64,000 nucleotides of DNA from Mobula hypostoma. Taxonomy: Eukaryota. The notes under the pieces are model-generated. The model was not told the origin of the DNA, did no database searches, and saw nothing but the letters and a program-made list of their open reading frames with translations. The DNA lies in assembly GCF_963921235.1 (NCBI RefSeq), contig NC_086097.1:45138001-45202000 (forward strand). Direction: 5' to 3'. The translations under genes were made by a program, and so were the position numbers. This document shows, in pieces, positions 12,190 through 60,445 of this stretch (the first letter of the stretch is position 1; each line of letters begins with the position of its first letter).

Positions 12190-14270
12190 AGGTAGTGTAG
12201 AAGAAACAAAGCAGCTTAAAGCAACTTCTTCGTCTATTAGAACATAGCTAGTGGTTTGAGAATGGGTCCAGTGTTGGCAGCATGTTCTTTGTGTGAGATT
12301 TGGCAACTCTGGGAAGCCTCCAGTCTCCCTGATAACTAGATCTACATGATGTGCATCAAGTTCCAAGTCCTTATAGACCGTGTTAAGGAACTGGAGTTGC
12401 AGCATGATGGCCTTTGGCTCATACGGAACAAGAAGGAGGTGATAGATTGGGGTAACTACCTTCCAAGTAGCTCCTAAGTTGCAGGAGGCAGATACTAGAC
12501 GGACTGTCTGGAGAGGGATACGGAATAGGGAACCTGTGCAGAGTACCCCGTGGCTGTTCCCCTCAATAATAATAATAATGATCTTTTTTTAATTAAAAGT
12601 AACAGTGACTGATTGGCAGGAGGCAAAGAGTGGGAATAAAGGGAGCCTTTTCTGGTTGGCTACTGGTGAGTAGTAGTGTTCCAGAGGGGTCTGTGTTGGG
12701 ACCAATTCTTTTAAGTCAATAATTTGGATGATGGAATTGATGGCTTTGTTGCAAAGTTTGCAGACAATATGAAGTTAGGTGGAGGGGCAGGTAGTTTTGA
12801 GGAAGTCGAGAAGCTACAGAAGGACAGACAGATTATGAGAATGGCCAAAGACATGGCAGGTGGAAGATTTTGGTAGAAGAAATGAAAGGGTTGACTATTT
12901 TCTAAATAGAGAGTAAATACAAAAACAAAAACTGAGGTGCAAAGGACTTGGTAGTCATTGTGCAGGATTTCCCAAAGGTTAATTTGCAGCTTGAGTCAGT
13001 GATAAGGAAGGCAAATGCAATGTTAGCATTAATTTCAAGAGGACTAAAATATAAAAGCAAGGATGTAATGTTGAGACTTCATAAAGCACTGGTGAAGTCT
13101 CAGTTGAAGTATTGTGAGTAGTTTGGGGCTCCTTACTTTAGAAAGGATGATCTGAAACTGGAGAATGATCAAAGGAAGTTCACAAAGATGATTCCAGGAT
13201 TGAATGGCTTGTCGTATGAACAGCATCTGATGGCCCTAGGCTTGTATTCACTGGAATTCAGAAGAATAAGGGGTGACCTAATTGAAACCTATCAAATGGT
13301 GAAAGACCTTGACAGAGTGGATGTGGAGAGGATGCTTCCAATGGTGGAGGAATCTCAGAATAGAGGGTAGTCCTTTTAGAAGGGAGATGAGAAAGAATTC
13401 CCTTAGCCAGAGAGTAGTGAATCTGTGGAATTATTTGGCACGGGCACCTGTGGAGGCCAAGTCTTTATGTATATATAAGGCAGAGTTTGATAGCTCATAG
13501 TTGGGAGCTTACCATCCAAGGATACGCATTGTATTGAAAGGACGGGCAAGAAGGCAGAGGGTGTGAGGTGACTCTGTTGGGAAAAAAAATGAAATCAAAT
13601 CCTTAGAAACAGGGAAATATGTAGAATCCTTGTGTGTAGAGTTAAAAACTACAAGCATAAAAAGGCTTCAATGGGAGTTAGGTAAAGGCCTTTGAACAGT
13701 AGCCAGGATGTGGAGTAGAAATTACAGCAGGAGATAGAAAAGGCAAGTAAAAAGGGGCAATGTTATGATAGTTATGGGGGATTTCAATATACAGGTAGAT
13801 TGGGAAAATCAGATTGGTGCTGGATCCCAAGAGAGGGAATTTGTAGAATGCCTACAAGATGGATGTTTAGAGCAACTTGTGGTTAAGCCCACGAGGGAAA
13901 GGGCATTACTGGAATGGATCTTGTGTAATGAACCAGATTTAATTAGGAAGCTTTAAGGTAAAGGAACCCATAGGAGCTAGTGATCATAACATGATAGAAT
14001 TCACCTTCCATTTTGAGAAGGAGAAGCTAAAGTCAGATGTATCAATACAGTGGAGTAAAGGGAATTACAGAGGCATGAGAGAAGATCTGGCCAACTTTGA
14101 TTGGAAAGGGTCATTAGCTGGGATGATAGCAAAACAGCAATGGCTAGAGTTTCTGGAAGCAATTCAGAAGGCACAGGATAGACTCATCCTGAAGAAGAAG
14201 AAGTATTCTAAAGGGAGGATGACACAACCGCGGCTGACAAGGGAAGTTAAAGACAACATAAAAACAAAAG
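12190..14270 (+). mobile_element. Rearranged, decayed CR1 LINE fragments (5' region, RT, then APE)
   Basis: RRIRGDLIETY remnant and the IVMGDFNIQVDW endonuclease motif; many stops. Confidence 0.8.
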
Positions 14271-14344
14271 GGGTCATTAGCCAGGATGATGCCAGAAATA
14301 AACATGGATCAATATAAAGTACTTCATGTACTGTAATCAAACAG

Positions 14345-17300
14345 TAAGACATAGGAGCAGAATTAGGCCATTTGGCCCAGAGTCTGCTCCCCATTTAATC
14401 ATGGCTGATCCTTTTTTTATCCTCCTCAGCCCCACTCCCTGGCCTTCTCCCTGTAATCTTTGAGGCCATGGTTAATCAAGAAACTATCAATTTCCGCCTT
14501 AAATACACCCAATGACCTGGCCTCCAAAGCTGCCTGTGGTGACAAATTCCACAAATGGACGCCCCTCTATTCTGATACTCTGCTCTCTTGTCCGAGACTC
14601 CCCCACCATGAGAAACATCCTTTCCACATCTACTCTATCTAGGCCTTTCAACATTCGAAAGATTTCAATGAGATCCCCACTCATCCTTCTAAATTCCTGC
14701 GAGTACAGACCCAGAGCCATCAAACGTTCCTCATATGATAACCCTTTCATTCCCAGAATCATTCTTGTGAACCTCCTCTGAACCCTCTCCAATGCCAGCA
14801 CATATTTTCTTAGATAGGGAGTGTAAAACTGTTCAAAATACTCAAGGTGAGTATAAAGACTCACCAGTGCTTTATAAAACCTCAGCATCGCATCTCTGCT
14901 CTTGTATTCCAGACCTCTTGAAATGAATGCTAACATGGCATTTGCCTTCCTCAACACCAACTCAACCTGCAAGTTAACCTTTCAGGGTGTTCTGCACAAG
15001 GACTCCCAAGTCCCTTTGCATCTCAGATGTCTGAATTTTCTCCCTATTTAGAAAATAGTCTGCACATTTATTTCTTCTACAAAAATGCATGATGATGTAT
15101 TTTCCAACATTGTATTTCATTTGCCACTCTCTTGCCCATTCTCCTAATCTGTCTAAGTCCTTCTGCAGCCTTCCCGTTTCCTCAGTACTACCTGCCACTT
15201 CACCAATCTTTGTATCATCTGCAAACTTGACAAAAAAGCCATCTATTCCAACGTCTAAATCATTGATATAAAAACACTGAGCCTGCGGAACAAAACTAGT
15301 TACTGGCAGCCAACCAGAAAAGGATCCTTTTGTTCCCACTCGCTGCCTCCTACCAATCAGCCAATGCTCTAACCATGCTAGTACCTTTCCTGTAATACCA
15401 TGGGCTTTTAACTTGTTAAGCAGCCTCATGCATGGTACCTTGTCAAAGGACTGCTGAAAACCCAAATATACACCATGTTTCATATTTCATCTTTTCCCTC
15501 TTAAAGATTCTTTTAGTTGCTTTCTGTAGGCTTTTAAAAGCTTCCCAATCCTCTATCTTTCCGTTAGTCTTCGCTTTGTTATATGCCTTCTCTTTTGCTT
15601 TTACATTAGCTTTGACTTCCCTTCTCAGCCACGGTTGTACTATTTTGCCATTAAAGTATTTTTGGAATCTTTGTGTGCATGCGTCGGTCATGCATGCAAC
15701 CTGTTACAGCCGTTCCAGACCAGTATTCTTACTTTTTCCTTCTTACTTTTTAACTTACGTTATGTTTTGTTTTTTTTTGCACGGTAACACGTAGAAGCTG
15801 CACCCTCTCTAGCATGCTGGTAGAGAAAGTTTTATTTGGGTTTTTAGCATTGGAAATAGTTACATTCCGACATGTCTCATTAGCGGGACAGAAGCATAGT
15901 AGCATTGTGTATTCCAGGGACCAGCTGATTGAGCTTACGCCGGCCAGTTTAGCGAGCAGAGCGGCGGACACCCCTGCTGAAATCTGGAGGAAAACACACA
16001 GAGGATGCAGAGGGAGATCACAAAGGTGAGGAAAGAGGACCGGGTCGAGACAACAGAGACTTATGGAGAAGAGGAGTTCGGTGGGTAATAAAATGGACGA
16101 GTTTACGGCACTAGCCATGCGTCAGAGAACATTTCAGGAGTGCAGTGTTATGTGTTTCACTGGAACGGGGCTGCACAAGGACATACCCGATCAAAACTTT
16201 TCCATGGACGGCTTCCAGACCATTCCGGCTGAATGGAAGTGCACTGAGAGTGGTAAGCGTAAAGGAGTTGGGTGCTTACTGTTCTGGTTAACAACAGATG
16301 GTGCAATCCGGGTCATATTACAATTGAGGAACGTGGTTGTAGAGCGGATATTGAACTTTTTACTGTTGGACTTCGGCCATATTCCACCGAGATTCAACAC
16401 TGGGCAGCACGGGAGGTCGTTCCTGCCTGTGGCCATCGAACTTGCAGCTCCTCCTGTGGAGGGTCAGACACCCTGAGCCAAAAGGCTGGTCCTGGACTTA
16501 TTTTCCATCTGGCATAGTTAGCATTTCGTTGTTTGATTGTTTGTGGTTTTTGTATTGCTATATTTATGCTCTATTCTTGGTTGGTGTGGCTGTAACGAAA
16601 CCTAATTTCCCTCAGGATCAATAAAGTATATCTATCTATCTATCCTGCACCCTCCCCATTTTTCTCAGAAACTCTGCTGTCATTCCTGCCAGCTGTCCTT
16701 CCAACTTACTTTGGCCAGCTCCTCTCTCATTCCACTGTAATTTCCTTTACTCCACCAAAATACTGCTACATCAGACTTTAATTTTTCCCTATCAAATTTC
16801 AAATTGAACTCAATCATATTGTGATCACTGTCTCCTAAGAGTTCCTTTAACCTAAGCTCTGTAATTGCTTGCGGTTCATTGTGTAACACCCAATCCATTA
16901 TAGTTGATACCCTAGTAGGCTCAACAACAAGCTGCTCTAAAAAGCCATCTCATAGGCATTCAACAAACTCACTCTCTTGAGATCCATTACCGACCCAATT
17001 TTTCCAATCTACCTGCGTGTTAAAATCTCCCATGACTATCATAACATTGCCCTTTTGATATGCCTTTTCTATTTCCTGTTATATTCTGTAGTCCACATCC
17101 CAGCTACTGTTGGGGGGCCTGCCATCAGTCGTTTTACCTCTGCAGTTGCTTAACTCAACCCACAAGGATTCAACATCTTCCAATCGTACGGCACACCTTT
17201 CTAAAGATTTGATTCCGTTCTTTACCAGCAGAGTCACGCTACCCCCTCTGTCCACCTTCCTATCCCTCTGATACAATACGTAATCTTGGACATTCAGCTC

Positions 17301-17440
17301 CCAACTACAACCATCCTTCAGCCATGACTCAGTAACGGCCACAACATCATACCCGACAATCTGTAAAAGTGGAACAAGATCATCCACCTTATTTCTTATT
17401 GAGATATAACACTTTGAGTACTGTATTTGCAACCCTTTTT
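14345..17440 (-). mobile_element. Decayed CR1 LINE (APE to RT) with a nested insertion
   Basis: KFADDTKIG, AVTESWL and GDSDHNMIEF motifs on the minus strand; interrupted at about 15660-16645. Confidence 0.85.
15660..16645 (+). mobile_element. Internally deleted Rex1/Babar-like non-LTR element
   Basis: APE N-terminal remnant (GNKMDE..CSVMCFT..; VLVNNRWCN..GLRPY) joined at about 16385 to the C-terminal RSFLPVAI motif, then AATAAA and a (TATC)n tail. Confidence 0.7.
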
Positions 17441-25110: not shown

Positions 25111-26483
25111 CGTGAAGTTCACGTCAGATAAATATTTCTTTGCCTTACACCTGCTTGAACTCACAGTTGGTTCACCTAGTTATTAAGTTGTGATTAAAGC
25201 CACCCAGACTATTTTCTATTCTCCTTTTAGGAGAGCTACTCTCAGGCATATGTCATGCCATACACAGAGGACACTGCATTAGGTGTCACAAGAAACTGGA
25301 TGCCGTAATCTGGAGCACATAACAAAATGCTCGAGGAACTCAGTGGGCTGGTCAGCATCTGTGGAGGCACAGGGAGAGTGAGCATTTTGGTCAAAACCTT
25401 GCATCATTCAGGGAAATTCAGGATGTGCACTCAATTACAGGGAAAATGACAACTTACTATTAAACTTTCCCACAGGAAGCATCCTTTAATTAGAGGAACA
25501 TAGCTTTAAACCAATAGCATAAAGGACAACAGCTCTGGGGCATAGGAATAGTAGAAATTGACTTAATGGTTTATTTTGTAGCTTCGGAGCTGGGAAAGTA
25601 ATCCATTTTTGCAATGCAGTTATTTAACAACCAATATTTCATATTAAGCCCATTCCTAATATCTTTGTAGCATTTTCTCAACAAAAATTGTAACAATATA
25701 CAGTAACATAGTCCAGAAATGAAAACAAGTTTGTGGATATCCATGCAAGTGAACAGACATATTCGGCAAACGTTTGCCCACAGTTGTTTCGAGGAACTAG
25801 GAGAAAGTCAGTCAACATGGCAAGCTGCTCAGGAACTGGGATGTGGAACACATTGGTAAATATTTGAATCAAATGATGTTAGTTTGGTTATAACAATATT
25901 GTTGGTAAAGCCGGCATTTGTTACCCACCCAGTATTGTCCCTGAACAGAGCTAAGCTATTTCACAGTTAACTTCATTGATATCAGTCTGGACTCACATTT
26001 TGGGCAAATTAGGCAAGTCTGGCAGATTTCTGCTTCCTAAAGACATCAATGAACTAAAAGGGTTTTGTGACATTCCAATAGGTCTGTAGTATTACACAAC
26101 ACAGATAGCTATTTTCATTTTTTTTAAATTCCAGATTATTAATTGAAGTTAAATACCAGTGCAACCGATGTGAAATTGAATTCAGGTCTTTGAGTTCCAC
26201 TAGCGCGCCCAACATTGTCTCTGTTATCTCCTATTTTCACATGCAGTTGTGTAGGTAAACTTATCTGTGTTACAGTCTGGCCTGAACTGTCCCTCACCTA
26301 CACACACTGGTACGGACACCCTGTCCTTCCCTTCCCTTACTCTCCTTGTAGACACAACACAAGATTAGGTGGAACAGTTTAGAATGAAGAAAGAAACTAT
26401 GATTGTTGGCAATTATCATGAATTTAAGTGGAATCACTGCAATGTGACTTTAATGTAGAACCAAAAATATAATTTAAAAATAC

Positions 26484-27140: not shown

Positions 27141-27700
27141 CTGTGAAAAGGTAAACATCTGTCAGCTGTAGCATGAAAACCAAAACATAGCTTCAAGTTA
27201 TCTATAACTAGATTTATTAACAACTGTTATTACATTAATCTCATTGAAGACCCTGACAGTATTTTGGCATCAGTAATATTTGATGGTTCTTTTGAAGAAC
27301 TAAATAAACACATAGGAACAAACAGATAGGTTGGCCTGCAAATGAATGGAAATAGTTCTTTGAAGAATGTATATGTGTTTTATTGGCAGGCAAATGTTGT
27401 TTTAATTTCCCAACATCAGCTACCCTGCAAATCATGCTCTCACGCATAGATAATCAGACTTGAAGCAAACCAAACAAAAAGCCAGTCTGACAGTAAAAAG
27501 GGTCTGAGAAAGGATTCCTGAGCCAAATATGAACTGGTTACTCTTTTCATGGAGGCCATTTCTCCGGCTGATTTCTTCCAGCATTCTTTGGTTCCATTTC
27601 TGATTTCAACCGGCACTATTTTATTTGTGAAAAAGGTTCAATTTTGGCAGCAATAATCAGTAGATGGGACATATTTTACTTCATTTTTCCCAAAACTTAC

Positions 27701-27850: not shown

Positions 27851-28590
27851 CTAACAAACTCATTAAAGATATTAACTTCAGTAAGAGGTGGAGCTTTACA
27901 CAGGCTAGAGCAAACCTTTTGAAGTTGAATTTTTCAAATTCAAATTTTTGTTCTGAGGCAATCGACTCCAAAGGCAAAGGACACAAAGCTGTTACAAGAT
28001 GTATAGGTTACAAAATCTTCAGTACCTAGGCAAGAATGTGCACTAAAAAAAACACTATTAAAAGCACACCAGTAGACGGAAAACTGGTGGAAATGAGCAA
28101 TCATAGATTTTATTTCTCTATATACCTTCCCTTAAAATAATGCAACTATTTGATCATTCGGTTATCAATGGGGTGAACCAGAATAACCTACAATACAGCA
28201 CTGACTACCTCCATGTAATGCACTCGGAAGGATTTTGGGTGACTTATTTATAATTTTATTTTATAAAGTATGCTGTCAGCCTAATAGAGAAAACAGCACC
28301 ATCATGTTATAAACTGCTACATTATTTTGCTGTAAGCATCATGATGTTGTGGATTTTAGCGTTCAGGAACACAAATACTATTTCTACTGCAAGGATCTTT
28401 GGGCTTAACTCGTAGTAGTTGGGTTGCATAAAACATAGCTGCCAAATAATCCCAAAAATGTGGGCCATCTGCTATGCAGCTCAGGAAAAGAAAAATATAT
28501 ATATAACTAACTTAACCTTGGAAACATACTCTGACAATTAACTTGAAAGGAATAAGAAAAATGACGAGAGACAGATGTTCTTATTTGTAA

Positions 28591-28697
28591 ACCCACATGA
28601 AGTGCTAGAGAAACTCAGTGGGTCAGGCAACACGGGATTCTGCCTGGTCGGCTGAGTTCTTCCAGTATTTTGCAGGCTGCTCCAGATTTCCAACACC
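28591..28697. mobile_element. 107-bp inverted Penelope pLTR remnant with a 15-bp TSD
   Basis: TGTTCTTATTTGTAA at 28576-28590 and 28698-28712. The interior is head-to-head copies of the gcctggcctgctgagttcctccagc motif. Confidence 0.7.
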
Positions 28698-29039
28698 TGT
28701 TCTTATTTGTAAGTTGCCAGATGTCCTCTGTGGACAAGATACTGAAAGCTACCATACAGCAATCACTAGCAATTAGGAAGGAAAACAGTATGAAGATCTG
28801 TATAGCAAGGGGATTCGAGTACAAGAAGGAAGATCTGATGAGACCACACCCAATTTTATTCTCCCTACACAAGGACATATTTGCTACAGAGAAAATGTAA
28901 CAATGGAAACAGAGATGGACATACTGTCCTATAAGAACACTTTGTATATGTTTTCTTGGGTTTCGAAGAGCTAAATGTCAGTTACTGAAACAGACAGAAC
29001 TTTAAGGAGGCTTGACTGTGTAAGATGTAGAGATGATCT

Positions 29040-29805
29040 GTCAGGGTCTTCACTACGTCGGTGAAAGCTGACATAGATTGGGTGTTACTTCATTGACCAC
29101 CTTCACTCTGTCTGCCGCAAAAGGCAGAATCTCCCTGGGGATATCCATTTCAGCTCAACTTCCCATTCTCGTGACATGGTTGTCTTTGGCCTCCTCTACT
29201 GCCACGATGTGGCTACACTCAGGTTGAAGAAGCAATACCTTATATTCCCCTCCGGTAGCCTCCAACCTGATGGCATGAATATGGATTTCTCCAACTTCCA
29301 GTAATTTCTCCCTCAATCCCCCTCCCCTCTTTTACCATTCCCATTCTTGTTCCCCTCTCACCCTTTCTCTTCTCCTTGTCTGCCAAATCACCTCCCTCTG
29401 GTGTCTCTCCTCCTTCCCCTTCTTCCATGGTCCACTGTCCTCTCCTATCAGGTTCCTTCTTCTTCTACCACCTTTTATCTCTTCCACCTATAATCACACA
29501 ACTTCTTCTGTCATCCGCGTGCCCTCCCCCACCTCCCCACCAACCCACCTTCTCACCTCCTCACTTGGTTTCACCTATCACCAGACAACTGATTCTCCTT
29601 CCTCTACCCTCCCTCTCCCCCTCCCCACCACCTTCTTATTCTGGCTTCGCCCCCCCCCCGCCCATTCCTAATCCTCACGAAGGTCTCAGGCCTAAATCTT
29701 GGGTGTTTATTCTCCTCCATAAATGCTGCCCGACTTGCTGAATTCCTCCTGCATTTGGTGTGTGGTCTTCAAGATTTCCAGCAACTGTGGAGGAGTCTCT
29801 TGTGT
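29040..29805 (+). mobile_element. Penelope-like element 3' fragment (end of GIY-YIG plus pLTR, degraded hammerhead)
   Basis: Homologous to 54930-55614 and 52968-53538 (ATLRL.....LIF..GSLQPDGMN). Confidence 0.85.
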
Positions 29806-30679
29806 TCTAAATAACTTACTATTTGGAAGCTGCATTAAATTGTTATATTCCGTTACATGGACACACAGTAAAAGGGCAGTGTCTAGAACCTCTGAAATGA
29901 AAGTGCCAAGTGCCCCCCCACAAGACATTATAACGTTGCCACCCTCTAGCTGGTAGAACACCAAACTCTGGTACAATGCACACAGACTGAAAGTTCAGTA
30001 TGATAATGTCCACTAAAATATGAAGAGCTGACTTTTCCAGGATGGCAATAAAGCATGTAAAATCAGTGAAATATCATTTCACAGATTATAGAGACAGGGA
30101 GCAGTACAATACAGAAGCAAGCCCTTCAACCCAATGAGCCTACACTGAGCACAGTATCCACTCAGTTAGTCCAAACTTCCTGCATTTGGTCCATGGGAAA
30201 AAGGCTGAACATGCACCTTATTTATGCCTCTCATCAATTTCAGCATTTATAAAAGGTCGCCCTTTTGATTCTAAAATTCCTTTAGAAGGGATTTATTCCT
30301 TCTAAATTCCAAGGAATAAGTACCTAGCCTGGCCAACCACTAGCCCTGGCAGCACTTTTCATAAATCTTTCGGCACTGTTTCTAGTTTAGCCACATCCCT
30401 CCTATAACAGGGTAATCAAAACTGTATGGTATCAGTTTGAATATTATACACCATTTGGACTTAGAATATAGAACAGGCCCTTTTCCCCACCATGTCTGTG
30501 CTGACCATAAAGCTAATCTAAATTAATCTCATCTACATACACATGGTCTGCATCCCTCTACTCCTTCCTGTTCACATGTCTGTCTAAATTCATTGCTATT
30601 GTATTTACTTCTATCTCTTCCCCGGCTGCATGTTCCAGACATCTAACACTTTATGTGTTAAAAAATCTTGCCTTGCAAA

Positions 30680-30748
30680 AGATCCTGCTGAAGAGTCTCG
30701 GCCTGAAACTTCGACTTTCCTCTTTTCCATAAATGCTGCCTGGCCTGA
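30680..30748 (+). mobile_element. 69-bp PLE hammerhead-only insertion with an 11-bp TSD, inside a CR1 remnant
   Basis: TGCCTTGCAAA at 30669-30679 and 30749-30759. Interior reads CTGCTGA-agagtctcggcct-GAAAC-TTC-GACT. Confidence 0.7.
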
Positions 30749-31603
30749 TGCCTTGCAAATCTCCTTTGAACTTGCCTTCCCCACCGTAAATCTATGTTCT
30801 CTAATAATTCACATTACCATCTTGGGGGAAAAAAAGAGTCGATCTATGCATCTCATAATTTTATACACTTGTTCATGTCCGTCCTCACCTCCCCTAAGTC
30901 TCAAAGCTCCAAAGAAAGCAAAGATAATTAAACTATTTGATTCAACTTTGAGTGTGAGATATCATTTTATAACTCTCATAGTCTCAGTGTACAACATATT
31001 TATTTGGTGTGCTCTCGGAACATTGTGAATCCTTGGTTTATTTTTGCTATTATAGGAACAATAACATCTAAAGCAGTGAGACAGGAAGATTTGTGTGGGG
31101 TGCAGTAGATGGTGGAAGCATGCACCTCTTATTTATTCAGAGATCACTACCTTACTGCGGGTCATGACTTACTGGAACCCAATAGATTTCTCAGGTTTAA
31201 GATCATTTGGATCAGACTGTAAATTCTCATTCATTTAGTCCAACAAAAATTCACAAGTTATGAATAGTTAAAGTGATTTTGCTTTCATGTTAAACTTGTA
31301 TGGCATCACTGCCAATACTGGTAGCCCATCTCTCACTTGTGAGCCCGGAATTAGATTGAGGGACAATGATGGAATGTTGATACATTTTCAAGCCAGGATG
31401 GTCCCTGACTTGAGGAGGAAAGCTGCAGTTTCACCATGCCCACACTGTCATTGACCTTTTACACATGGTTAGTATTGTCATGGGGTAAAAAGGTTGGTGA
31501 TTTGCCGCTGAGAACCTGGAGGATAGTACACACTGAAGCCACACAGCAGCGGAAAGAATGAATGAGTAAATGTTTAGGGTGGTGACTGCCAATCAAGCAA
31601 GGG

Positions 31604-33222
31604 GTTCCCTACCATCTCCTTATCACAGTGTTCCCTATCACCATATCAAAGTGTTCCCTGTATTCCCTACCACCACCTTATCACAGTGTTCCCTGTGTTC
31701 CCTAACACCATATCGTAGTGTTCCCTGTTCCCTACCATCTCCTTATCACAGTGTTCCCTAACACCATATCAAAGTGTTCCCTGTGTTCCCTACCACCACC
31801 TTATCACAGTGTTCCCTGTGTTCCCTAACACCATATCATAGTGTTCCCTGTTCCCTACCACCTCCTTATCACAGTGTTCCCTGTGTTCCCTAACACCATA
31901 GCACAGTGTTCCCTGTTCCCTACCACCACCTTATCACAGTGTTCCCTGTGTTCCCTATCACCATATCAGTGTTCCCTGTGTTCCCTACCACCACCTTATT
32001 ACAGTGTTCCATGTGTTCCCTAACACCATATCACAGTGTTCCCTGTTCCCTACCACCTCCTTATCACAGTGTTCCCTGTGTTCCCTAACACCATATCACA
32101 GTGTTCCCTGTTCCCTACCACCTCCTTATCACAGTGTTCCCTGTGTTCCCTAACACCATATCACAGTGTTCCCTGTTCCCTACCACCACCTTATCACAGT
32201 GTTCCCTGTGTTCCCTATCACCATATCAGTGTTCCCTGTGTTCCCTACCACCTCCTTATCACAGTGTTCCCTGTGTTCCCTAACACCATATCAAAGTGTT
32301 CCCTGTGTTCCCTACCACCTCCTTATCACAGTGTTCCCTGTGTTCCCTATCACCATATCAGTGTTCCCTGTTCCCTACCACCACCTTATCACAGTGTTCC
32401 CTGTGTTCCCTATCACCATATCAGTGTTCCCTGTGTTCCCTACCACCTCCTTATCACAGTGTTCCCTGTGTTCCCTAACACCATATCAAAGTGTTCCCTG
32501 TGTTCCCTACCACCACCTTATCACAGTGTTCCCTGTGTTCCCTATCACCATATCAGTGTTCCCTGTGTTCCCTATCACCATATCGTAGTGTTCCCTGTGT
32601 TCCCTATCACCACATCACAGTGTTCCCTGTCACCATATCACAGTGTTCCCTGTGTTCTCTATCACATCACAGTGTTCCCTGTGTTCCCTATCACCTTATC
32701 ACAGTGTTCCCTATGATCTCTATCACATCTCAGTGTTCCCTGTGATCTCTATCATCATATCAGTGTTCCCTGTGTTCTCTATCACTATATCACAGTGTTC
32801 CCTGTGATCTCTATCACATCTCACAGTGTTCCCCGTGATCTCTATCACCATATCAGTGTTCCCTGTGTTCTCTATCACTATATCACAGTGTTCCCTGTGA
32901 TCTCTATCACATCTCACAGTGTTCCCCGTGATCTCTATCACCATATCAGTGTTCCCTGTGTTCTCTATCACTATATCACAGTGTTCCCCGTGATCTCTAT
33001 CACCATATCAGTGTTCCCTGTGTTCTCTAGCACCTTATCACAGTGTTCCCCGTGATCTCTATCACCATATCAGTGTTCCCTGTGTTCTCTATCACTATAT
33101 CACAGTGTTCCCTGTGATCTCTATCACATCTCACAGTGTTCCCTGTGATCTCTATCACCATATCAGTGTTCCCTGTGTTCTCTATCACTATATCACAGTG
33201 TTCCCTGTGATCTCTATCACCA
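31604..33222. repeat. Minisatellite/satellite with a ~30-35-bp unit (CA)CAGTGTTCCCTGTGTTCCCTAYCACCWTAT and higher-order periods
   Basis: Tandem array visible directly. Periods are 65 and 195 bp on the left and 93 bp on the right. Confidence 0.97.
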
Positions 33223-33299: not shown

Positions 33300-33490
33300 A
33301 AAACCAAAAAACTGCAAGATGCTGGAAATCTGAAGCATATCAAAAGGTGTTCTGAAACTCAGCAGGTCAGACAACATCTGTGGAAGGAGTTAATGTTTCA
33401 GTTGAAAGACTCCCTGTGAGACTTGAAGCATTAACTCTGTTTTTCTCTCTACAGATCCTGCCTTACATGCTGAGAGCTTCAGCAGTTTCT
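33300..33490. mobile_element. Old inverted PLE pLTR remnant
   Basis: gatgctggaaatc...ctcagcaggtcag on one strand followed by a degenerate reverse copy. Confidence 0.5.
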
Positions 33491-33764: not shown

Positions 33765-36029
33765 CTAAAAGAAAAAGACAGAATATAGCAATTGTTCCTC
33801 TTTATTTAGAATCACTTAAATACTATAAAATGAAATAAATTAATAGGCATTTAGAGACAGAATGAAAGTGAAGTACAGTCAACACCAAAATTTGGTTTAG
33901 CGTAGTAACTTTATTATGTGAAAAGTTTCATACAGTTTCATTACATGCAGTGAGTAGTGTTCATGTTGAAACAATGAAGCAGAATTTTTCAAAGATGCAG
34001 CAACTTGTGACAACATTCCATCTGACCAAAATTACATCAGTGACTCAACATGCTATTTAATAGATATTAAACATACAAAACAAAGAACTCAATGCAGAAA
34101 GCAGGAGATGGCAAAAGACAGCATGATAGAGGAAAACACAACGTACAGAAAAAGACGGAACAAAATAAAAACAAACAGGCATGTTCCTTACAGCTCATCA
34201 AATACTTGATTGTAAAAGGTAAGAAATTAAAAACAAATCTGAAAGTATTGGCTCGGGGTTTTAAGTGGGCTGATCACACTTGGAGACCTCGACATGACAG
34301 TCGGGCTGTTGAGATTCTGACTTGGACTTTTAGAAAGTGGTAGGGTCAGAGAGGGTGACTTGCGAGTCCCAAGCTTCCCAGTAACTTTAACTGAGGTGGT
34401 TCCATATTCTTGAACAGTTGGTTCCTGGTTCAACAGAAGACCAAGGAGTTCAGCACTGCTTTCGGGAGAGGCGATCAGTTTTGGAGTCTGACCCAGAAAC
34501 ACCTGCACTGAAACTACATGGAGTTGTCATAGATGCCGAGTATATGGGAGAGCAGAAGCAATAAAATGATTATCGATGACTTTAATGTTTAACATTGTTA
34601 GTGAAGAATAAACTAGTATTTTAACAACAGATTGTTTCACAGTTTTCAACTCTTAAAATACTGGCTTCAGTCGTAAAATATACTGATTAAGGATTTACAG
34701 TCAGAAACCTGAAATTATCTACCTCTCCCTTTTAAAGAGAGACATTGTATCCCAGACAGTTTTCTTATCCAGATAGCCCATATTTAATAGTCACAAATGC
34801 TGCACAGCTTGGCATTAAACTTTGATCATTTTTGTCCTAATGATTTTCTCATAATTGAGAAAACATTGAAATGAAACTTGTGGTTGGAAGACAAGAATAC
34901 TGAATGGACAATGTAAGTGGCAAAACAGTCTTTGAAGCATCTCAGGGACTTCCGAGATGATTCTATGAAGTCACTTTGCATGATAAGATAAAACATGTGA
35001 AGGCAAATGGACAATGTACTTACATTCTTCCGCTGTCCTGAACTGCATCACTCTGCTTTATGCTATCGCTCAAAGTAACTTACCCTCTAATTTGATAGTT
35101 AAAAACAGAGACTAGTTTAGACACCACAACACCCAGGTAACACTTGCTAGGTTTGTCTATACCACAGACGCCATCTGATCTGCTAGGCGTTCCTTATTTT
35201 TAAGATTTCCAGCATCTGCAGTTTTTTTGATTTTTATAGATTCATCTTTTGCTCACTGCTTTGAAGAGGCTATGCTCATGAAAAAACAACTACATGTTTT
35301 AACTAGAAGCATTTACGTTTGGACTATATTTTATCTACAAACATTCATATTTGACTGAGAGATTTGTTTCTGATGAAGCTTGGATCCACTACAAAAATTT
35401 TGTTAGTAAAAATTAGTACATTTTGGCAAACTTTCATGCGGATATTACAAAATGATGAGACCTTATTCTTCAAACACCAGTGAATTATTGTAGCAAATTT
35501 GAAAAGCAGCAACACTACTTTACATGTGACCTAGCTCTCTGCACCTCAATCACATGACTCAAAAAGCCAGCAAAACATAAAGACTGCCAAAAAATCCATA
35601 AATGATTCAGGACACCTCGTCACCATTACTCTGTTATTCCCCCAAAACCTAAATATTCGAAGTCTGTGGTGGTTTGCTCCAAGGAAAGTCTCATTAATGC
35701 ATTTGAGAGGTTTGGATGCATTGAAAAGTGATTTTCAAATACACAAGCTTTGCATTTCAAAACAAAATGTCAGCATGCTTGGAGAGGCTGTGTGTGCATG
35801 TGAATGAGACCTGACAGCAAGGAGGCAGGTACGTTCAGAGAGCTAGAGCATTGCACAAATGAGACCTACCTTTGCAATGAGTCACACGGCGTTTCCCTTG
35901 TGATTACAGAGACAGAGACAGAAGTGCTAGATAAAGACGTGTATGAGCAAAGTCAGGCTCACCTAACACCTGTTCTAATGGCTTCTTAGCCACAGTCATT
36001 TACATATTCTAAATAATCTCTCACAATCT

Positions 36030-40522: not shown

Positions 40523-40719
40523 CTACATTAAAATATGGTTTATTTGTTCAAAAATATTCACAACTTCTCTGTCATTGTGCATTTATTGAGAAATAATTCT
40601 ACTTATTTCAAATGCAAACATCTTCCTTCAATTGACTTTTCATTCAAATTATTTTTATTCACAACTGTTTTATGTAAAGCAAACACTCATACTAGCTACA
40701 TGTAAAATAACTGTTGTTG

Positions 40720-40848
40720 AGCCCTGATGAAGAGTCTTGGACCGAAACATCGACTGTTTATTCATTTCTATAGATGCCTCCTGACCTGCTTCAGCATTTC
40801 GTGTATGTTGCTTTGGATATCTAGCATTTGCAGAATTCCTTGTGTTTG
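40720..40848 (+). mobile_element. Solo PLE pLTR fragment with a hammerhead motif (40720-40755)
   Basis: AGCC CTGATGA agagtcttggacc GAAAC ATC GACT, followed by the conserved gatgc..cctg..cagcat tail. Confidence 0.75.
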
Positions 40849-49134: not shown

Positions 49135-49873
49135 CAGACATCCCACCCTGCAAAAACTCATTTCAGGGAGGTAGCACCATCAATTTGCGGGAGACTTCTG
49201 GGAGAGGTGGGATGTCTGCAATAGAGTAGTTCCTTAGCAGCCAGCCAGCTAGTTTAAATAACGTTAGCTATGCTAATGAACGAATAACACCTGTTAAACT
49301 CACCTCAACATGTCTTGTACAGTCTTAACCCACCATGGGCAATAGAAAAGTCACCGTTGCAACAGTGCAGCGAGCAACACTGTCATTATTTTGACCCCTA
49401 TTAGTATAGTCTGGGGTGACGTACATTTTATATTTTCTTTTTTTGGAACTCTCTGCAACTCTGACTTTTTTTGGAACTCTCTCGCTCGTGGTCGCTCTCA
49501 CTCGCGCTTGCTTTCTCGCTCTTGCTTTCTCGCTCTCACTCTCTTGCGCGCTTGCTTTCTTGCTCTCACGCTCTCTCTCTAGTGGTCGCTCTCACTCGCG
49601 CTCGCTCTCTCGCACTTTCTTTCTCGCTTTTGCTTTCTCACTCTCACTCTCTTGCACGCTTGCTTTCTCGCTCGATCTCTCTCTCGTGGTCGCTCTCACT
49701 CGCGCTTGCTTTCTTGCTCTTGCGCTCGCTCTCTCGCTCTCTCTCGCACGTTCTCTCACGCCTGCTCTCAAAAAAATCAATTTCCGGGACATTGTATATA
49801 ATTTGCGGGCATCAGGGAGCCACTATTAATTTGCGGGAGACTCCTGGAACTTCCGGGAGAGGTGGGATGTCTG
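49135..49873. mobile_element. Non-autonomous DNA transposon, 13-bp TIR CAGACATCCCACC, 6-bp TSD AGTTTT
   Basis: TIRs at 49135-49147 and 49861-49873. AGTTTT at 49129-49134 and 49874-49879. Internal (CTCGCT)-like low-complexity tract at about 49475-49770. Confidence 0.85.
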
Positions 49874-50580
49874 AGTTTTCATCTTTAATCTGCTGCAGAT
49901 CAATCCATGCTCCCCCCACCCCCACAACACAAACCCATTTTTATTTGCACGTTTGAAAACAAATCTTAATATAGATAAAGAGCAATAGATCTCCCACGAA
50001 TCAGCTTAATCAGCATTTTTACCAAATGGAATCATTTACTCATTTGCTTTTTAAATCAGTCCAATTTCTCATCCATTCACAAATTTTGATACAAGATGCA
50101 AGACTGCTTAATGTCATTTCCTGTACACAAGGAGAAGGAGAACAACATAATTGTTACTCTGGATCCAAAGCAGCATGAGAAAAACACAAAAGATAAAGAA
50201 CACAATGATAATTAAAAAAAACATACAATATTAATACATCAGATAGCTTATCCACTATACTGAACTTTATCAAATACTGTTAGGACGTTTGCATGATGCC
50301 AGCATAGGACGTGACTCAGTTACGTCCTCAAAAGAGGTAGTTAGACATGGTCTTCGTTGACTGGATGCTGACAATGATAGGGAGCACCTCCAGAAGTAAC
50401 CTAAAAAACCTGAACCAAGCATAATAACAAGTTTGAAAAGGACTCAGTGGAAATTTGGCAACTGATAGAATGTTTAATACAAATAATGAGTTCATTTAGA
50501 TATAAAGTGATTTAAGACATATGAGGTATTACAGTGCACATGATGAAGATTATTAATTACATCTGCTACTTTGTTTTTAC

Positions 50581-50710
50581 CTTTTGGTTGCTGATGTTAT
50601 ATCCTTCCTGGTTCCAGAGGGAGATGGTAGAGAGCCGCTTATTTTCTTTGGTAGTACTGTTCCATTGTTAACTGTAGGTCTTAATGGCAGGGTTTGCACT
50701 AAGGGTCTCG
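50581..50710 (-). CDS. eml1: EML1 exon: (A)RPLVQTLPLRPTVNNGTVLPKKISGSLPSPSGTRKDITSATK(S)
   Basis: ttgcag| acceptor, |gtaaaa donor, 130 nt, phase 1-2. Matches the EML1 basic linker. Confidence 0.95.
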
Positions 50711-52471
50711 CTGCAAAGCAAGCAAACATATCACTACTGCCTGTGCAGTTTGGTTCTTATAGTAAGTAATATTAATAGTCTACAATGCAATGATTACAGC
50801 CTTCACAGCTGTTTTAATTTAGGAGATTAAATGCGTTCATATCCTCTGTAAGAAAAGCACACAGGTGGTGATGAGTTGCTTTAAGTTTCTAGCTTACCAT
50901 GTTAAAACAAGTAAATCTAAAGTGGTGGGTTAGCACTCATCAGAACCATTCTCTGAAAGATTTTCTTCATGAAGGTTCACCAAAAGCATATTGTATCATA
51001 AGGTGCATTTCACTAATCTTTATATTTTAGGATTTGTCTCCTGAGAGGCTTTGAACCCATTTTGTAAAGGGCTTTCTGCCCTGTAGCATTACAACCAGCA
51101 ATCAGAAGTCCATCTCTTTGATACTTGAGAGGACCAACTAAGGCAGGGAAGCAGCTCAGAATAAACAAGGCTGACAGTGAAAAATCTACCTAACCTTTGG
51201 CAAACAGTTGTTCATGTTAAGCTTTCCTTGCAGTAAACAGACCCCGAGGCATTGCCAGGGGGTAAATAATTACCTGGATAACATTACTTTCAGAAGTTCA
51301 CTCTGAGGCATTCCAATGCAAGTGCAGTTTTCAGTAATATTCCACTAGAGAAGGTTTGTGATCAACAGGAACTGTACCCTGATAGGATGGGTCACAGCAA
51401 TAATATCCACAACCAGCATGAAGATCTCCATTTACAAAATTTGGGTCGCATTTACTGTCACATAGAATAGGGTCAGTTCAACCAGTGAAAATTGTGGTCG
51501 GGGATAAGAATTTAAATTGGACCACTTTTGGATGATACACATAATCAATGCAAACACGCGCATACTTGTAACTTTCTGGAAAGATTGAACAGGCTTTCTC
51601 CCCCAGAAATGTTTAGACTGATGAGTGAACTCAGGATGATGAAAAAGCTTGAAAGAGTCGTCGGCTATGAGGGAACAGCTGCTGCTTTACAGCACCAGAG
51701 ACCTGGGCTCAATCCTGATTTTGGCTGTTTCTGTCGTTGTGAGGTTTCTTTCCTAGTTTGAAGATTGGCTTTGTACATCAAAACGTCAAAGCGTACAGTG
51801 AAATACTCTGCTCTTCCATCACAAAGATGCACGGGTTGTAAGTTGGCTGGCTGCTTCAAAGAGTTCCCAGTGTGTGAATAAATAGAAGAATCTGTGGGAA
51901 TTGGTGAAAGATTATTACAATTGTATGGTTGACAGCTAGGATGCACTTGATGGACCAAAGGGCCTGTTTCCATGCTGTGTCTGTCTATAACTTAAAGAGA
52001 GTATTCTTCCTTTTGCAGACAAGACCAAACCAATGAGTCACAACCGAAATCCAATATATCCAAAAGGAAATGGTGGAGGAACTGCTTTAGATTATAAAAT
52101 TGGCTACCACAAGGTGCGGATTTGCATGGATCCATTTGAGGGGTAGTTGGATAAACAAATGAGTGAGGGAGAACATGCTGGCGGAATTAGACGAAAACTC
52201 ATATTAAGCAGAAACCCCAGCACAGCCATAATGAGTTAATGACAGTTTCCAAACCATAGAAACAATATAATACTTCATGCTAGCATTCATAATTTCAAAT
52301 GTGCTCCTTAGAAGGTCTTTGAATTTATAAGTCTAATTTTTAGCCTTGGCACCAGCAGTCCAAATTAAATAAAAATGTCTCTTGACCTTTTCCAAAAGGT
52401 TTCAGGATACTTTGTTTAACTGACATTTCCCTTTTTTTTTACCATTACATCATTTCAATAGGAAGAGGCGC

Positions 52472-52507
52472 AGTCGACGTTTCAGGCCGAGACCCTTCGT
52501 CAGGACT
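52472..52507 (-). ncRNA. Minimal type I hammerhead ribozyme motif (PLE type), sense to the eml1 pre-mRNA
   Basis: AGUC-CUGACGA-AGG(GUCUCGG)CCU-GAAA-C-GUC-GACU: helix I AGUC/GACU, CUGANGA core, helix II AGG/CCU, GAAA and a GUC cleavage triplet. Confidence 0.8.
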
Positions 52508-53406
52508 AACTGAAGGAAGAGTGAGTAAGGGATTTGAAAGCTGGAGGGGGAGAAGGAGATCCAAAATGATAGGAGAAGACAGGAGGGGGAGGGATAGAGC
52601 TGAGAGCTGGACAGGTGATAGGCAAAAGGGGATACGAGAGGATCATGGGACAGGAGGTCCGGGAAGAAAGACGGGGGGGGGGTGACCTAGAGGATGGGCA
52701 AGAGGTATATTCAGAGGGACAGAGGGAGAAAAAGGAGAGTGAGAGAAAGAATGTGTGCATAAAAATGAGTAACAGCTGGGGTACGAGGGGGAGGTGGGGC
52801 CTAGCGGAAGTTAGAGAAGTCAATGTTCATGCCATCAGGTTGGAGGCTACCCAGACGGAATATAAGGTGTTGTTCCTCCAACCTGAGTGTGGCTTCATCT
52901 TTACAGTAGAGGAGGCCGTGGATAGACATGTCAGAATGGGAATGGGTTACACATTTTAATTCCACATCCCATTCCCATTCTGACATGTCTATCCACGGCC
53001 TCCTCTACTGTAAAGATGAAGCCACACTCAGGTTGGAGGAACAACACCTTATATTCCGTCTGGGTAGCCTCCAACCTGATGGCATGAACATTGACTTCTC
53101 TAACTTCCGCTAGGCCCCACCTCCCCCTCGTACCCCAGCTGTTACTCATTTTTATGCACACATTCTTTCTCTCACTCTCCTTTTTCTCCCTCTGTCCCTC
53201 TGAATATACCTCTTGCCCATCCTCTGGGTCACCCCCCCCCCGTCTTTCTTCCCGGACCTCCTGTCCCATGATCCTCTCGTATCCCCTTTTGCCTATCACC
53301 TGTCCAGCTCTCGGCTCTATCCCTCCCCCTCCTGTCTTCTCCTATCATTTTGCATCTCCCCCTCCCCCTCCAGCTTTCAAATCCCTTACTCACTCTTCCT
53401 TCAGTT

Positions 53407-53442
53407 AGTCCTGACGAAGGGTCTCGGCCTGAAACGTCGACT
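53407..53442 (+). ncRNA. Minimal type I hammerhead ribozyme motif (mirror copy)
   Basis: Identical motif on the plus strand. Confidence 0.8.
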
Positions 53443-53765
53443 GCGCCTCTTCCTATAGATGCTGCTTGGCCTGCTGCGTTCACCAGCAACTTTGATGTGT
53501 GTTGCTTGAATTTCCAGCATCTGCAGAATTCCTGTTGTTTACATCATTTCAATGTAATTTTCTACTTCAACCATTGAGATCCCTATACTCACTGAGTCTG
53601 ATTTCAGACAAATGCAAATTATATAACATTAGAAGGTTGGGTCTTTACATCTGTGCAGTTCACCCCCCAACAATCTACCAACAGCAGTTCTAACCTATCA
53701 GGTTAAAATATTGACTTCTGGAAAAATAATTCCTTTAAGGATTGAAACCATTACTTTCTACACAA

Positions 53766-55614
53766 CACACACAAAATGCTGGAGGTACTCAGCAGGCCAG
53801 GCAGCTTCTATGGACGAGAATATAGTCAACATTTCGGGCCGAGACCTTTCATCAGGACTGGAGAAAAGGAGATGAGGAGTTAAGAGTTAGAAGGTGGGAG
53901 GTGACGGGGGAGGAAGAAACACAAGGTGATAGGTGAAACTGGGAGGGGGTGAAGTAAAGAGCTGGGAAGTTAATTGATGAAGGGGATACAGGGCTGGAGA
54001 AGGGGGAATCTGACAGGAGAGGACAAAAGGCCATGGAAGAAATGGGGGAGGAGCACCAGAGGGAGGTGATGGGCAGGTAAGGAGATAAGGTGAGAGAGGG
54101 AAAAGGGAATGGGGTATGGTGGGGGGGTGGTGTTGGATTACCAGAAGTTTGAGAAATCATTGCTCATGCCATCAGGTTGGAGGCTTCTTAGACAGAACAT
54201 AAGGTATTGCTCCTCCAACCTGAGTGTGGCATCATCGTGACTGTAGAGGAGGCCATGGACTGATATGTGGGAATGGGAAGTGGAAATGAAATGGGTGAGC
54301 ACTAGGAAATGTCTATTATAAACACACTGACTCTCACAGCTACCTGGACTATGCTGTTTCCCACCCTGTTACTTGTAAAAATGCCACCCCCTTCTCTTAA
54401 TTCTTCCGTCTCTGCCACATCTGCTCTCAGGATGAGGCTTTTCAATCCAGAACAAAGGAGAAGTCCTCCTTCTTCACAGAAAGGGGCTTCCCATCCTCCA
54501 CCATCAACACTGCCCTCAACCGCATCTCTTCCATTTCGCACACATTAGCCCTCATCCCATCCTCCTACCACCCCACCAGGGATAGGGTTCCTCTTGTCCA
54601 CACCTACCAACCCAGTAGCCTCTGCATCCAGCACATAATTCTCCGTAACTTCCGCCATCTCCAGCGGGATCCCACCACCAAGCACATCTTTGCCTCCCCC
54701 TACCCCCACTTTCTGCTTTCTGTAGGGATCGCTCCCTATGCGACTCCCTTGTCCATTCATCCCTCCCCACCTCCCCACTCCCTCCTGGCACTTATCCTTG
54801 CAAGCGGAACAAGTGCTACACCTGCCCCTACAACTCCCCCCTCACTACCGTCCAGGGCCCCAACCAGTCCTTCCAGGTGAGGCGACTCTTTACTTGTGAG
54901 TCTGTGGGGAGTCACCTACTGTATCCGGTGCTCCCGGTGTGGCCTCCTGTATATCAGTGAGACCTGACATAGATTGGGAGGCTGCTTCGCCAAGCACCTA
55001 CACTCCGTCCGCCAGAAAAAAGTGGGATCTCCCATTTTAATTCCACTTCCCATTCTCATATGTTCATAAATGGCTTCCTCCACTGTCGCAATGAGGCCAC
55101 ACTCAGGTTGGAGGTGCATCACCTTATATTCCATCTGTGTAGCCTCCAACCTGATGACATGAACATCGATTTCCTTGAGCTTCCGGTAATGCCCCCCCCC
55201 CCCACTTCACCATTCCCCATCTCCTTTTCCCTCTCTCACTTTATCTCCTTATCTGTCCATCACCTCCCACTGGTGCTCCTTCCTTTTTCTTCCATGGCCT
55301 TCTGTCCTCATCCATCAGATTGCCCTTTCAACAGCCCTGTCTCTCTTTCATCAATCAACTTCCAACTCTATACTTCACCCCCACCCCACCGCCACTCTGG
55401 TCTCACCTAGTACCTTGTGTTTATTCCTCCCGGGCTCCCAGCTTCTAACTCGGACTCCTCAGCTCTTTTCCCCACCAGTCCTGACGAAGGACCTCGGCCC
55501 GAAACATCCAATGTACTCTTCTCCAAAGATGCTGCCTGGCCTGCTGCGCTCCTCCAGCATTTTGTGTGTGATGCTCGGATTTCCCAAGCATCTGCAGATT
55601 TTCTCTTGTTTGTG
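53766..55614 (+). mobile_element. Older Penelope-like element (Neptune-like), 5'-truncated, with an inverted 3' copy (about 53766-54305 on minus)
   Basis: Remnants of the RT thumb (VYYK.TDSHSYLDY..SHP..CK), a Cys linker (PCKRNKCYTCP) and GIY-YIG (V.YCIRCSRCGLLYI.ET). TSD ACTTTCTACACAA at 53753-53765 and 55615-55627. Degenerate hammerheads at 53824-53859 (-) and 55477-55512 (+). Confidence 0.9.
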
Positions 55615-55689
55615 ACTTTCTACACAATCATCCCTTCCAGACCATCAAGCCTTCCCTGCAATGGTTTAACCTATCATGTTATTTTTCTT

Positions 55690-55920
55690 CAGCATGGTAA
55701 CAGGTCCATCCTGACTAATGGGCCCATGCTATCCCATTACACCTGTGTGACCAATTACCCTACTAACCCACCTATACAGCTTTGGAATGTGGGAGGGAGC
55801 TGGAGCACTTCAAGGAAACCCACATAGGGGAGAGCATACAAACTCCTGACAGACAGCAGCAGGGACGGAGCTCAGCTCTCTGGCACAGTGATAGCGTTGT
55901 GCCAGCCGCCACACCACCGA
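55690..55920 (-). mobile_element. tRNA-derived SINE, decayed
   Basis: Same family as 620-857 and 47130-47385. Confidence 0.6.
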
Positions 55921-57085
55921 GCTGCCCCTTATTTTCTTTGTCACTTTGGTTGTTTGCAACGCTGCCAGGAACAAACACATTTGCAAACAGACCCTTGGCT
56001 CATTACCTTACCAAGCACATTAATTAAAACGGTAACCCCTACAGCTCGTCAGAAAGGCTTTTCCATTTACCCATGTTGTCACTTTTTCCTTCAGCGTTAA
56101 GGTCAATGAGTGTATTTTCAAAATCGACTTTTCTTTTGTATTCATTGCTAATTCAGAGCAAAGGAGGCAGTTGTGCCGATGAGCGATGGCTGCCTGCCAG
56201 GGCCTCTCTGTGATGAACACGTTGCTGCAGTGTTGATATGAATGGGACCGCCAGCAGCATTTACAACAAATCATTTGGCAAGTAGTCTTTAACTTTCTTC
56301 AGGCAAACTCAACCATTGGTACAGTACCATAAACATTATGATTCCCTCACAAATAATTATTGAACTAAAATATTAATTTTTTTAAAAAGCTATCTACAAA
56401 TTAGGAGCTAATGATGTATATTATTTGTGCCATTCCTTCTCAGCCACTGAATAGAGAGGGTACGTCTCAAAAACACTCCTTCATTGATTCATTAGTTAAT
56501 CCATTTAATGACCGGACTTGATCTTGTCATTATGGCAGAGGGAAAAAGCAAAGGGATATGGCTTGATCGCCTTAAACCTGCTCTTAGTCAGCCATTAGAT
56601 GAAAATAATAGAACATAAATTGACAAATTACATTTCAACAAAGTACAGGGTTGTTGAGTTAACTACAAAATGAAATTGGATAATGGCCCGTTCAGATTTA
56701 GGCCCAAGTCGTATTGAGTAAAGACTTGCTAATGTAAGAAATCTTACCTAGGGACTTTACAGAGAAGTTTTATTAATGGTTTCAGGAAATATTGGATCTA
56801 GAATCATCTAGCCTCTCAGCAACAACGTTAGATTAAGGAAATGAAATTAATGAAAAATAATGAAGAAAACTATTTGTGACAGAAAGGAATTGGAGGAGTA
56901 GACCAGAATGATGATGGAACTGCAGATTCTTTCCAATTTACAGAAATAATTCCCAAATGCCCAAAGGGAGGGTACTGCTGGTTTCAGAAACAGCAGGAAG
57001 TTTGCCACTGGTGAGAGAAGGCACGCCACAATGTCAGTAAATCAGGGTTAAGAACCAAGAACTCTCCCACTTGCTTAGTGGAGTT

Positions 57086-60127: not shown

Positions 60128-60445
60128 TACGATTGATAAGTTCGTGGCCTAAGGTAGAAGGGGTCAATTTTAGAAAACCTAGCACATTTATTTTTCAACA
60201 TAGTCCCCTCCTACATTTACACACTTAGACTAGTGATCGTGGAGCATATAGATCTTGGACCTCCAGAAAGTGTCCATAGCAGGGGTGATTAATAAGTTCG
60301 TGGCCGAAGATAGAAGGAGATAAGTTATACGGCTCTCGTTACATGCACATGCAGTTCAACTCTTTGAGTGATTATGCAGAAAGTTTGAAGTTAATAACTC
60401 ATCTCCTTCTACCTTAGGCCACGAACTTAACCATCACCCCTCGTA
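60128..60445. mobile_element. Tc1/mariner-type MITE with TA termini
   Basis: The right TIR reads TACGAGGGGTGATGGTTAAGTTCGTGGCCTAAGGTAGAAGG. The left TIR is similar with a short deletion, and a third internal copy starts at about 60281. Confidence 0.8.

Follow-up and report, generated by a model that had tools for sequence, protein, structure and literature searches.

Introduction

Penelope-like elements (PLEs) are retrotransposons that typically leave an inverted, 5′-truncated copy with a one-sided tail of 30–40 bp and a target-site duplication (PMC8557442; PMC3846280; PMC8969392). Inverted pseudo-long terminal repeats (pLTRs) with a tail are flanked by duplications of 8–10 bp and are most frequently arranged head to head (PMC3846280), and inverted pLTRs with short 3′ extensions serve as features for curation (PMC8969392). 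Here we describe an insertion of this kind in a 64,000-nt stretch of the ray Mobula hypostoma (NCBI RefSeq assembly GCF_963921235.1, contig NC_086097.1, positions 45,138,001 to 45,202,000 of the forward strand; hereafter the window, whose own numbering is used throughout). It is a near-perfect 1.1-kb palindrome of two PLE 3′ ends, each with a minimal type I hammerhead ribozyme motif, and lies in the gene eml1. An original prediction, made from the sequence alone, had drawn attention to it and had described inverted segments as frequent in PLE integration, in agreement with the papers above. We conclude that the locus is very probably a recent, dead, 5′-truncated PLE insertion, whose palindrome is a by-product of PLE integration with no selected role.

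The biochemistry of PLE integration has been studied with PAc, a Poseidon element of Anolis carolinensis. Once purified, its protein acts on both target strands, which it cuts and extends, starting from two internal sites of the RNA whose positions define the tail; uncleaved RNA is its main substrate (PMC11167929). The papers cited here call the integration step of PLEs undefined. The G10.1–C11.1 pair is highly conserved in PLE hammerheads, and cleavage of a single motif is not detectable (PMC4209133). Dimers cleave weakly (Lünse et al., as cited in the review PMC6765202), one of nine frog retrozyme dimers cleaved (2026 preprint, bioRxiv 10.64898/2026.07.22.740005), and the Anolis motif was cleaved only with PLE protein, RNA-seq read ends being absent at its cut site (PMC11167929). 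An open-access literature search on Penelope hammerheads in sharks and rays turned up no paper on the family of the element described here.

Structure of the insertion

Self-comparison of the window pairs the arms exactly in the register i to 105914−i, so that 52460–52946 matches 53454–52968 with five substitutions (52553, 52554, 52561, 52601 and 52688) and no indels. Counted strictly, each arm is 487 nt; the count becomes 489 nt with 2 nt common with the duplication and 492 nt with one further mismatch. The arms are separated by an unpaired spacer of 21 nt (52947–52967), and the whole is flanked by an exact 15-nt direct repeat (52445–52459 and 53539–53553). A chance identity of 13 nt occurs between random position pairs of the window at a rate of 5.5e-6. 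The pairing bears out what had been noted by eye, namely near-perfect arms with about five substitutions, no indels, a 21-nt spacer and a flanking duplication of up to 15 bp. It had been overlooked that 19 of the 21 spacer nucleotides are the element's own sequence.

The left target-site duplication (15 nt, 52445–52459) ends in 5 nt that match the element antisense at four of five positions, a microhomology at the outer junction. It is followed on the minus strand by the inverted, shorter PLE 3′ end (487 nt, 52460–52946), which comprises GIY-YIG C-terminal codons, the stop, the 3′ untranslated region (UTR) and a hammerhead, and whose outer end coincides with neither of the two usual 3′ ends of the family. 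At the central junction, 2 nt (52947–52948) are unlike the family sequence in the loose-end consensus before 52949 and are either non-templated or later mutated. The longer copy, on the plus strand and antisense to eml1, spans 592 nt (52949–53540); its first part (52949–52967) is element sequence that forms most of the hairpin loop, and its last 2 nt overlap the right duplication (53539–53553). The insertion is asymmetric, which had also been overlooked: the right copy carries an extra 84–86 nt (53455–53540, plus strand) ahead of that duplication, including the family's 36-nt tail between its two usual 3′ ends.

These ends emerge from a contig comparison that covered 52940–56000 (loop, right arm, right flank and a neighbouring insertion) in four of 24 listed runs. 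Family contigs exit into unrelated flanks at 53540 and at the equivalent of 53504, 36 nt apart. The exit behind 53540 is documented by 234 records of the DNA run X1 (agreement 0.43), and the exit before 53763, which aligns to 53504, by 263 X1 records (agreement 0.39), agreement being low in both cases. Upstream of 52949, among the loose ends listed, family contigs carry on as element sequence. The plus-strand copy is therefore 5′-truncated at 52949, and all but 2 nt of the loop are element-derived. In many contigs from other loci, a long-tail end abuts a short-tail end of opposite orientation (joints of 53503–53540 to ~53763); this tail-to-tail arrangement suggests that inverted units form arrays or that copies insert next to tails already present.

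Published head-to-head pLTR insertions share with this locus an inverted, 5′-truncated copy joined at its 5′ end, a one-sided tail, a short duplication and a small offset of the inner ends (19 nt here; in Adineta Pen2a the ends overlap by 15 bp). The arms described here differ in being longer and younger (487 nt, 99%), no full open reading frame is left, and the inverted arm begins where the target offers microhomology, ~45–50 nt internal to the inner canonical site. In PAc, too, two 3′ ends lie ~36 nt from each other shortly 3′ of the hammerhead, the target is AT-rich and an uncleaved hammerhead is copied into DNA, but initiation there is reported not to depend on homology (PMC11167929), unlike the left junction of this insertion with its microhomology. 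The locus is a young, unusually clean new copy of an already described type of PLE insertion.

The host gene reads from high to low coordinates, as originally proposed. The exon at 12054–12185 (minus strand) is 100% identical to the EML1 protein P0001 (NCBI, Hemitrygon akajei), and in a tblastn search of the window with P0001 all 14 matches at ≥70% identity lie on the minus strand, ordered from 50711 down to 1296. The nearest downstream exon (50580–50710, minus strand; P0001 residues ~85–127) has its AG acceptor 1.7 kb from the insertion, and no exon for residues 1–84 was located within the window. This places the insertion in an intron whose 5′ exon falls outside the window, a label that depends on the acceptor at 50710 and on the P0001 annotation.

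Identity of the element

The longer copy begins with the C-terminal 54 codons and stop of a PLE GIY-YIG endonuclease (52949–53113, plus strand), 94% identical to residues 315–368 of the ray PLE-derived protein P0125, whose sequence runs on into the same 3′ UTR as the right copy at 89% identity. The Pfam GIY-YIG match of P0125 is weak (E = 4.6e-4; 20.9 bits, under the gathering cutoff of 22.6), and a CxxC/H/H pattern of the CCHH motif was seen in it by eye; the relative P0121 has a weak match to the Pfam reverse transcriptase (RT) family RVT_1 (E = 0.0076). Pfam gave no match on two neighbour fragments translated from the window or on two of the five relatives. The RT and the endonuclease cysteines fall outside the truncated insert and were read only in relatives and in the neighbouring copy. 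The resemblance to P0125, together with relatives that match RT or endonuclease families, upholds the Penelope identity first assigned to the palindrome.

Both P0125 and the neighbouring older copy (54787–54834) carry a CX4CxxC linker. A CX2-5CxxC linker is described as a mark of Neptune and Nematis that is missing from Penelope and Poseidon (PMC8557442), which separates the ray family from PAc. The locus also has the GIY-YIG C-terminus, the hammerhead in the 3′ end and the inverted, 5′-truncated copy with a one-sided tail that characterise endonuclease-bearing (EN+) PLEs. The element is probably an EN+ PLE of Neptune type, a call made at the level of motifs that does not separate Neptune from Nematis. 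Summed depth is 3.4–8.5 million over the element and 23.6 in the unique bin beside it; this is not a copy number but signals a very abundant family.

A miniature inverted-repeat transposable element (MITE) or hairpin element that moves as a palindromic unit was considered and rejected. The termini are asymmetric, with a tail on one side; the family contigs upstream of 52949 continue without folding back, among the loose ends listed; and the four head-to-head pairs of the window have different centres. Separately, an isoform of the ray 'divergent protein kinase domain 1C' (P0129, NCBI) contains the C-terminal RT region of this PLE, through exonisation or annotation error.

Age of the insertion

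In organism B, a related species ~2% diverged, a 920-nt contig matches only 53539–53787 and departs exactly at the first base of the right duplication, so that the orthologous site appears empty there. Organism B contigs cover both ends of the neighbouring insertion at 53753–55627, which therefore predates the split between organisms A and B. The two organisms differ at 18 of 942 positions (1.9%) in five contigs of single-copy depth, and the two arms at 5 of 487 (1.0%; 95% interval 0.3–2.4%). At four of the six variable arm sites for which it was computed, the window allele takes a far larger share of depth in A than in B (53138, 20% and 0.06%; 53231, 46% and 7%; 53373, 36% and 0.7%; 53445, 34% and 2%); the shares are similar at 53012 and 53156. 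Both arms share alleles at every variable site listed. All this fits an insertion after the A/B split, with no gene conversion needed. One of the five arm differences, 53313/52601, could be polarised against the loose-end consensus among the variants listed, the left arm being derived by a CpG-type change.

An X1 contig spans 53520–53787 without a difference, at a depth of 20.6 compared with 20.2–20.7 in nearby single-copy contigs. Being unbroken, it suggests that the X1 sample has no empty allele. Record 12 of run X15 begins at 53543 and has no unmatched part.

Hammerhead motifs and their predicted masking

The minus-strand motif (52472–52507), sense in the eml1 pre-mRNA, has the conserved core, a G10.1·U11.1 pair and a palindromic ACGU that replaces helix III. 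The plus-strand motif (53407–53442), of identical sequence, is antisense in the pre-mRNA, with a predicted cut site at 53438/53439; the site is uncut in both arms. Reading the positions by hand, we find the C3–A9 box, G12–A14, A15.1–U16.1, H17 and helix I in both arms, and an extra base after A9. The earlier description of an intact minimal type I hammerhead in each arm is therefore right for the core positions and fails at the 10.1–11.1 pair, where a U at 11.1 in both arms (53430 and its mirror) gives G·U in place of the conserved G–C. Compared with metazoan PLE hammerheads as described in PMC4209133 and PMC6765202, the motifs share the core, the extra nucleotide between A9 and 10.1, a short helix II, the ACGU palindrome and an open helix I of 4–5 bp; they differ in the U at 11.1 and in lying on opposite strands rather than in tandem. 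An Rfam scan, one of the checks originally proposed, returned no hammerhead among 16 matches at E ≤ 10, so that identification of the core comes from the hand reading. All miRNA-type matches at the loop have sub-gathering scores and merely reflect the long hairpin.

Computed folding disfavours the ribozyme. In the monomer, a misfold of the core with the cleavage-site strand is preferred (−11.7 against −6.3 kcal/mol; z-score −1.15), and the minimum-energy structures of both monomer and cofold differ from the hammerhead fold. Because the two motifs lie on opposite strands, only one of them can be sense in any given transcript, the other being antisense, and the palindrome offers no cis dimer of the kind invoked for PLE hammerheads. 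The only other sense hammerhead core in the window (53859–53824) is altered in the palindrome and in the cleavage triplet. Loose hammerhead-pattern matches at 24905, 51618 and 48741 were dropped, as they are not among the tail-profile matches described below.

The minus-strand transcript of the insert is predicted to fold at approximately −1090 kcal/mol, with 36 of 36 nucleotides of the sense hammerhead paired to the antisense arm in the minimum-energy fold; the masking duplex is worth −76.3 kcal/mol, compared with −6.3 for the hammerhead conformation. The insert would thus fold as a ~490-bp hairpin in the eml1 pre-mRNA and bury the sense ribozyme, so that masking of the ribozyme by its perfect complement, as originally suggested, is physically sound. 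The buried ribozyme was probably inactive anyway.

Of the other consequences envisaged for the hairpin, a cruciform-prone DNA site survives in reduced form. In yeast, Alu inverted repeats with a 9-bp spacer suffered 80% fewer breaks, and no fork pausing was detected once the spacer exceeded 8 bp (PMC8053094). A 21-nt loop with five mismatches should therefore favour a cruciform less than a true palindrome would, and hairpins in single-stranded DNA may still form. MDA5, a cytoplasmic sensor, is unlikely to read intronic RNA. Editing of the predicted hairpin by ADAR is plausible; changes in run X9, guessed to be RNA, resemble those in the DNA run X1 (A>G 15 and T>C 23 in X9, 17 and 24 in X1), the counts being swamped by paralogues and silent on editing. 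Inverted Alus are a main ADAR substrate class in primates, and PLE hairpins may play the same part in rays, should they prove widespread in their introns.

Origin of the palindrome

Within the by-product interpretation, we favour, at slightly better than even odds, priming of the same RNA by both target strands. The endonuclease would cut both strands with a stagger, leaving duplications of 13–15 nt. Reverse transcription from one target 3′ end would begin at the family's canonical outer site, and the other target 3′ end would prime the same RNA by way of the 4/5-nt microhomology immediately 3′ of the hammerhead. PLE RT is not known to carry an RNase H domain, so the template RNA could stay intact. 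The two cDNAs would stop near a common 5′ end of the RNA and be joined head to head, giving arms identical at birth that have since gained five changes. The microhomology criterion, set after the junction had been seen, is satisfied at two of 587 positions. LINE-1 twin priming also has the second target strand prime internally on the RNA through microhomology, within one duplication. In L1 the segment that is inverted derives from a separate region further upstream in the RNA, whereas here the same region is duplicated, which produces a palindrome.

Fold-back of the cDNA is the less likely route, though a serious rival, and other routes take a small remainder. The first cDNA would stop at 52949, add 2 nt and snap back, the mirror arm of 487 nt would be copied from DNA, and its end would be joined by microhomology to the other end of the target. 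Such a course explains the shared register, and it accommodates inner ends only 19 nt apart, a non-canonical outer end with microhomology and the near-register inner ends of three of the four pairs in the window; self-priming on an antisense template has been proposed for head-to-head PLE palindromes (PMC3846280). The cDNA 3′ end, however, forms no stable self-priming hairpin in computed folds (−1.6 kcal/mol, end unpaired), which favours double priming, and the central microhomology is at most 2 nt. Moreover, RNA-primed synthesis would place the end of the inverted arm at the inner canonical start site, which is where it lies in the neighbouring insertion and in a mini insertion (28591–28697). 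A single locus cannot decide between the two. More distant still is the original proposal that the inverted arm neutralises co-transcriptional self-cleavage of the eml1 pre-mRNA, masked copies being selectively tolerated, which we consider very unlikely. Masking is thermodynamically overwhelming in the computed fold, the two sense hammerhead cores of the window both belong to inverted pairs, and of the solo tails five are antisense and one is sense. But that bias is not significant (two-sided p = 0.22), six copies being too few to show one, and an antisense excess is common among intronic retroelements on other grounds. The order in which the antisense arm is transcribed first holds automatically for any head-to-head pair on either strand and so does not point to selection. 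In this insertion as in its neighbour, the copy that is longer and bears the tail runs antisense to eml1, so that the inversion itself creates the sense ribozyme. That ribozyme lacks a cis dimer partner, carries G·U at 10.1–11.1 and favours the misfold; single motifs are inactive and dimers weak (PMC4209133; PMC6765202), the Anolis cut site shows no RNA-seq read ends (PMC11167929), and the same gene holds an inverted insertion without a hammerhead (28591–28697). We give equally little credence to a wider version, in which intronic hammerheads would cleave the host pre-mRNA given PLE protein, unmasked sense copies would be purged, and head-to-head integration would act as a self-silencing filter that aids intragenic accumulation; the tally of the window is compatible with it.

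Two further accounts concern the near-perfection of the arms and are more improbable again. An older palindrome could have been held near-perfect by gene conversion between its arms, and the five differences are indeed clustered (52553–52688), with none in the 258 nt adjoining the loop. Against this, the site is apparently empty in organism B, subfamily alleles are enriched in lineage A, the interval of arm divergence is compatible with insertion after the split, and the arms of the older neighbour have decayed to 77.8% identity. An assembly fold-back artefact, the least probable account of all, would likewise produce near-perfect symmetry, and none of the contig records compared spans the loop and both junctions. 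The arms nonetheless differ at five sites, one of them a CpG-type transition; the tail is one-sided; the X1 contig ties it to the right flank without a difference and at single-copy depth; and decayed neighbours show the same layout. The original argument that the duplication speaks against an artefact also stands, since unique flank returns on both sides of the 15-bp repeats.

Some observations count against a recent by-product of double priming. The inverted arm starts at neither canonical site, unlike that of the neighbour, and the gap of ~730 nt between the neighbour's inner ends is unexplained by run-off on the same RNA. The in vitro mechanism is known from a Poseidon element and not from a Neptune-type one, and solo copies lean antisense (5/6). 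The X1 junction contig holds 19 nt on the element side, where bridging calls for 31 nt, and X1 may come from the very sample that was assembled; the contig check covers the right-arm side, and the empty site in B is inferred from its breakpoint. We nevertheless regard the insert as a by-product of integration that is most likely neutral.

A single locus is of little weight in itself, and its value is that of a clean fossil of PLE integration. Priming of one RNA by both target strands would be expected to leave arms from an identical template, near-register inner ends and an outer end defined by microhomology, as here. Because the family is abundant in rays, junction statistics could separate double priming from fold-back, and the same abundance could serve as a cheap test for selection against intact sense hammerheads in introns.

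Other insertions in the window

Scanning this 64-kb window at E ≤ 1 with a profile built from the hammerhead and tail gave 14 matches, eight of which make up four head-to-head pairs, the other six being solo. Three of the four pairs are flanked by duplications of 13–15 bp, and one of the four has no hammerhead. The inner arm ends that lie near register, in three pairs, do so at three different element positions. The older neighbour (53753–55627, element 53766–55614) has the same layout as the palindrome, with 13-bp duplications and an inverted arm of ~545 nt that ends at the inner start site, while the long copy ends at the outer one; this longer plus-strand copy encodes the RT C-terminus, the CX4CxxC linker and GIY-YIG. 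The pair without a hammerhead is a mini insertion of tails only (107 nt, 28591–28697; 28576–28712 with its exact 15-bp duplications). A further pair of tails (33309–33487) is decayed, and no target duplication of at least 7 nt was detected around it. Solo PLE 3′ fragments, five on the plus strand and one on the minus strand, lie at 28987–29791, 30678–30756, 40717–40844, 25299–25406, 27502–27587 and 35157–35225.

Other repeats accompany the PLE copies. Low-complexity tandem repeats at 32024–32716 and 49410–49956 yield long spurious open reading frames, and a MITE-like segment of 161 nt at 60281–60441 is ~70% self-complementary. Within eml1, LINE-like RT fragments at 12603–17307 and 5168–7771 lie in opposite orientation, ~72% alike and 1.2–2.6 kb apart, and are possible further sources of intronic double-stranded RNA.

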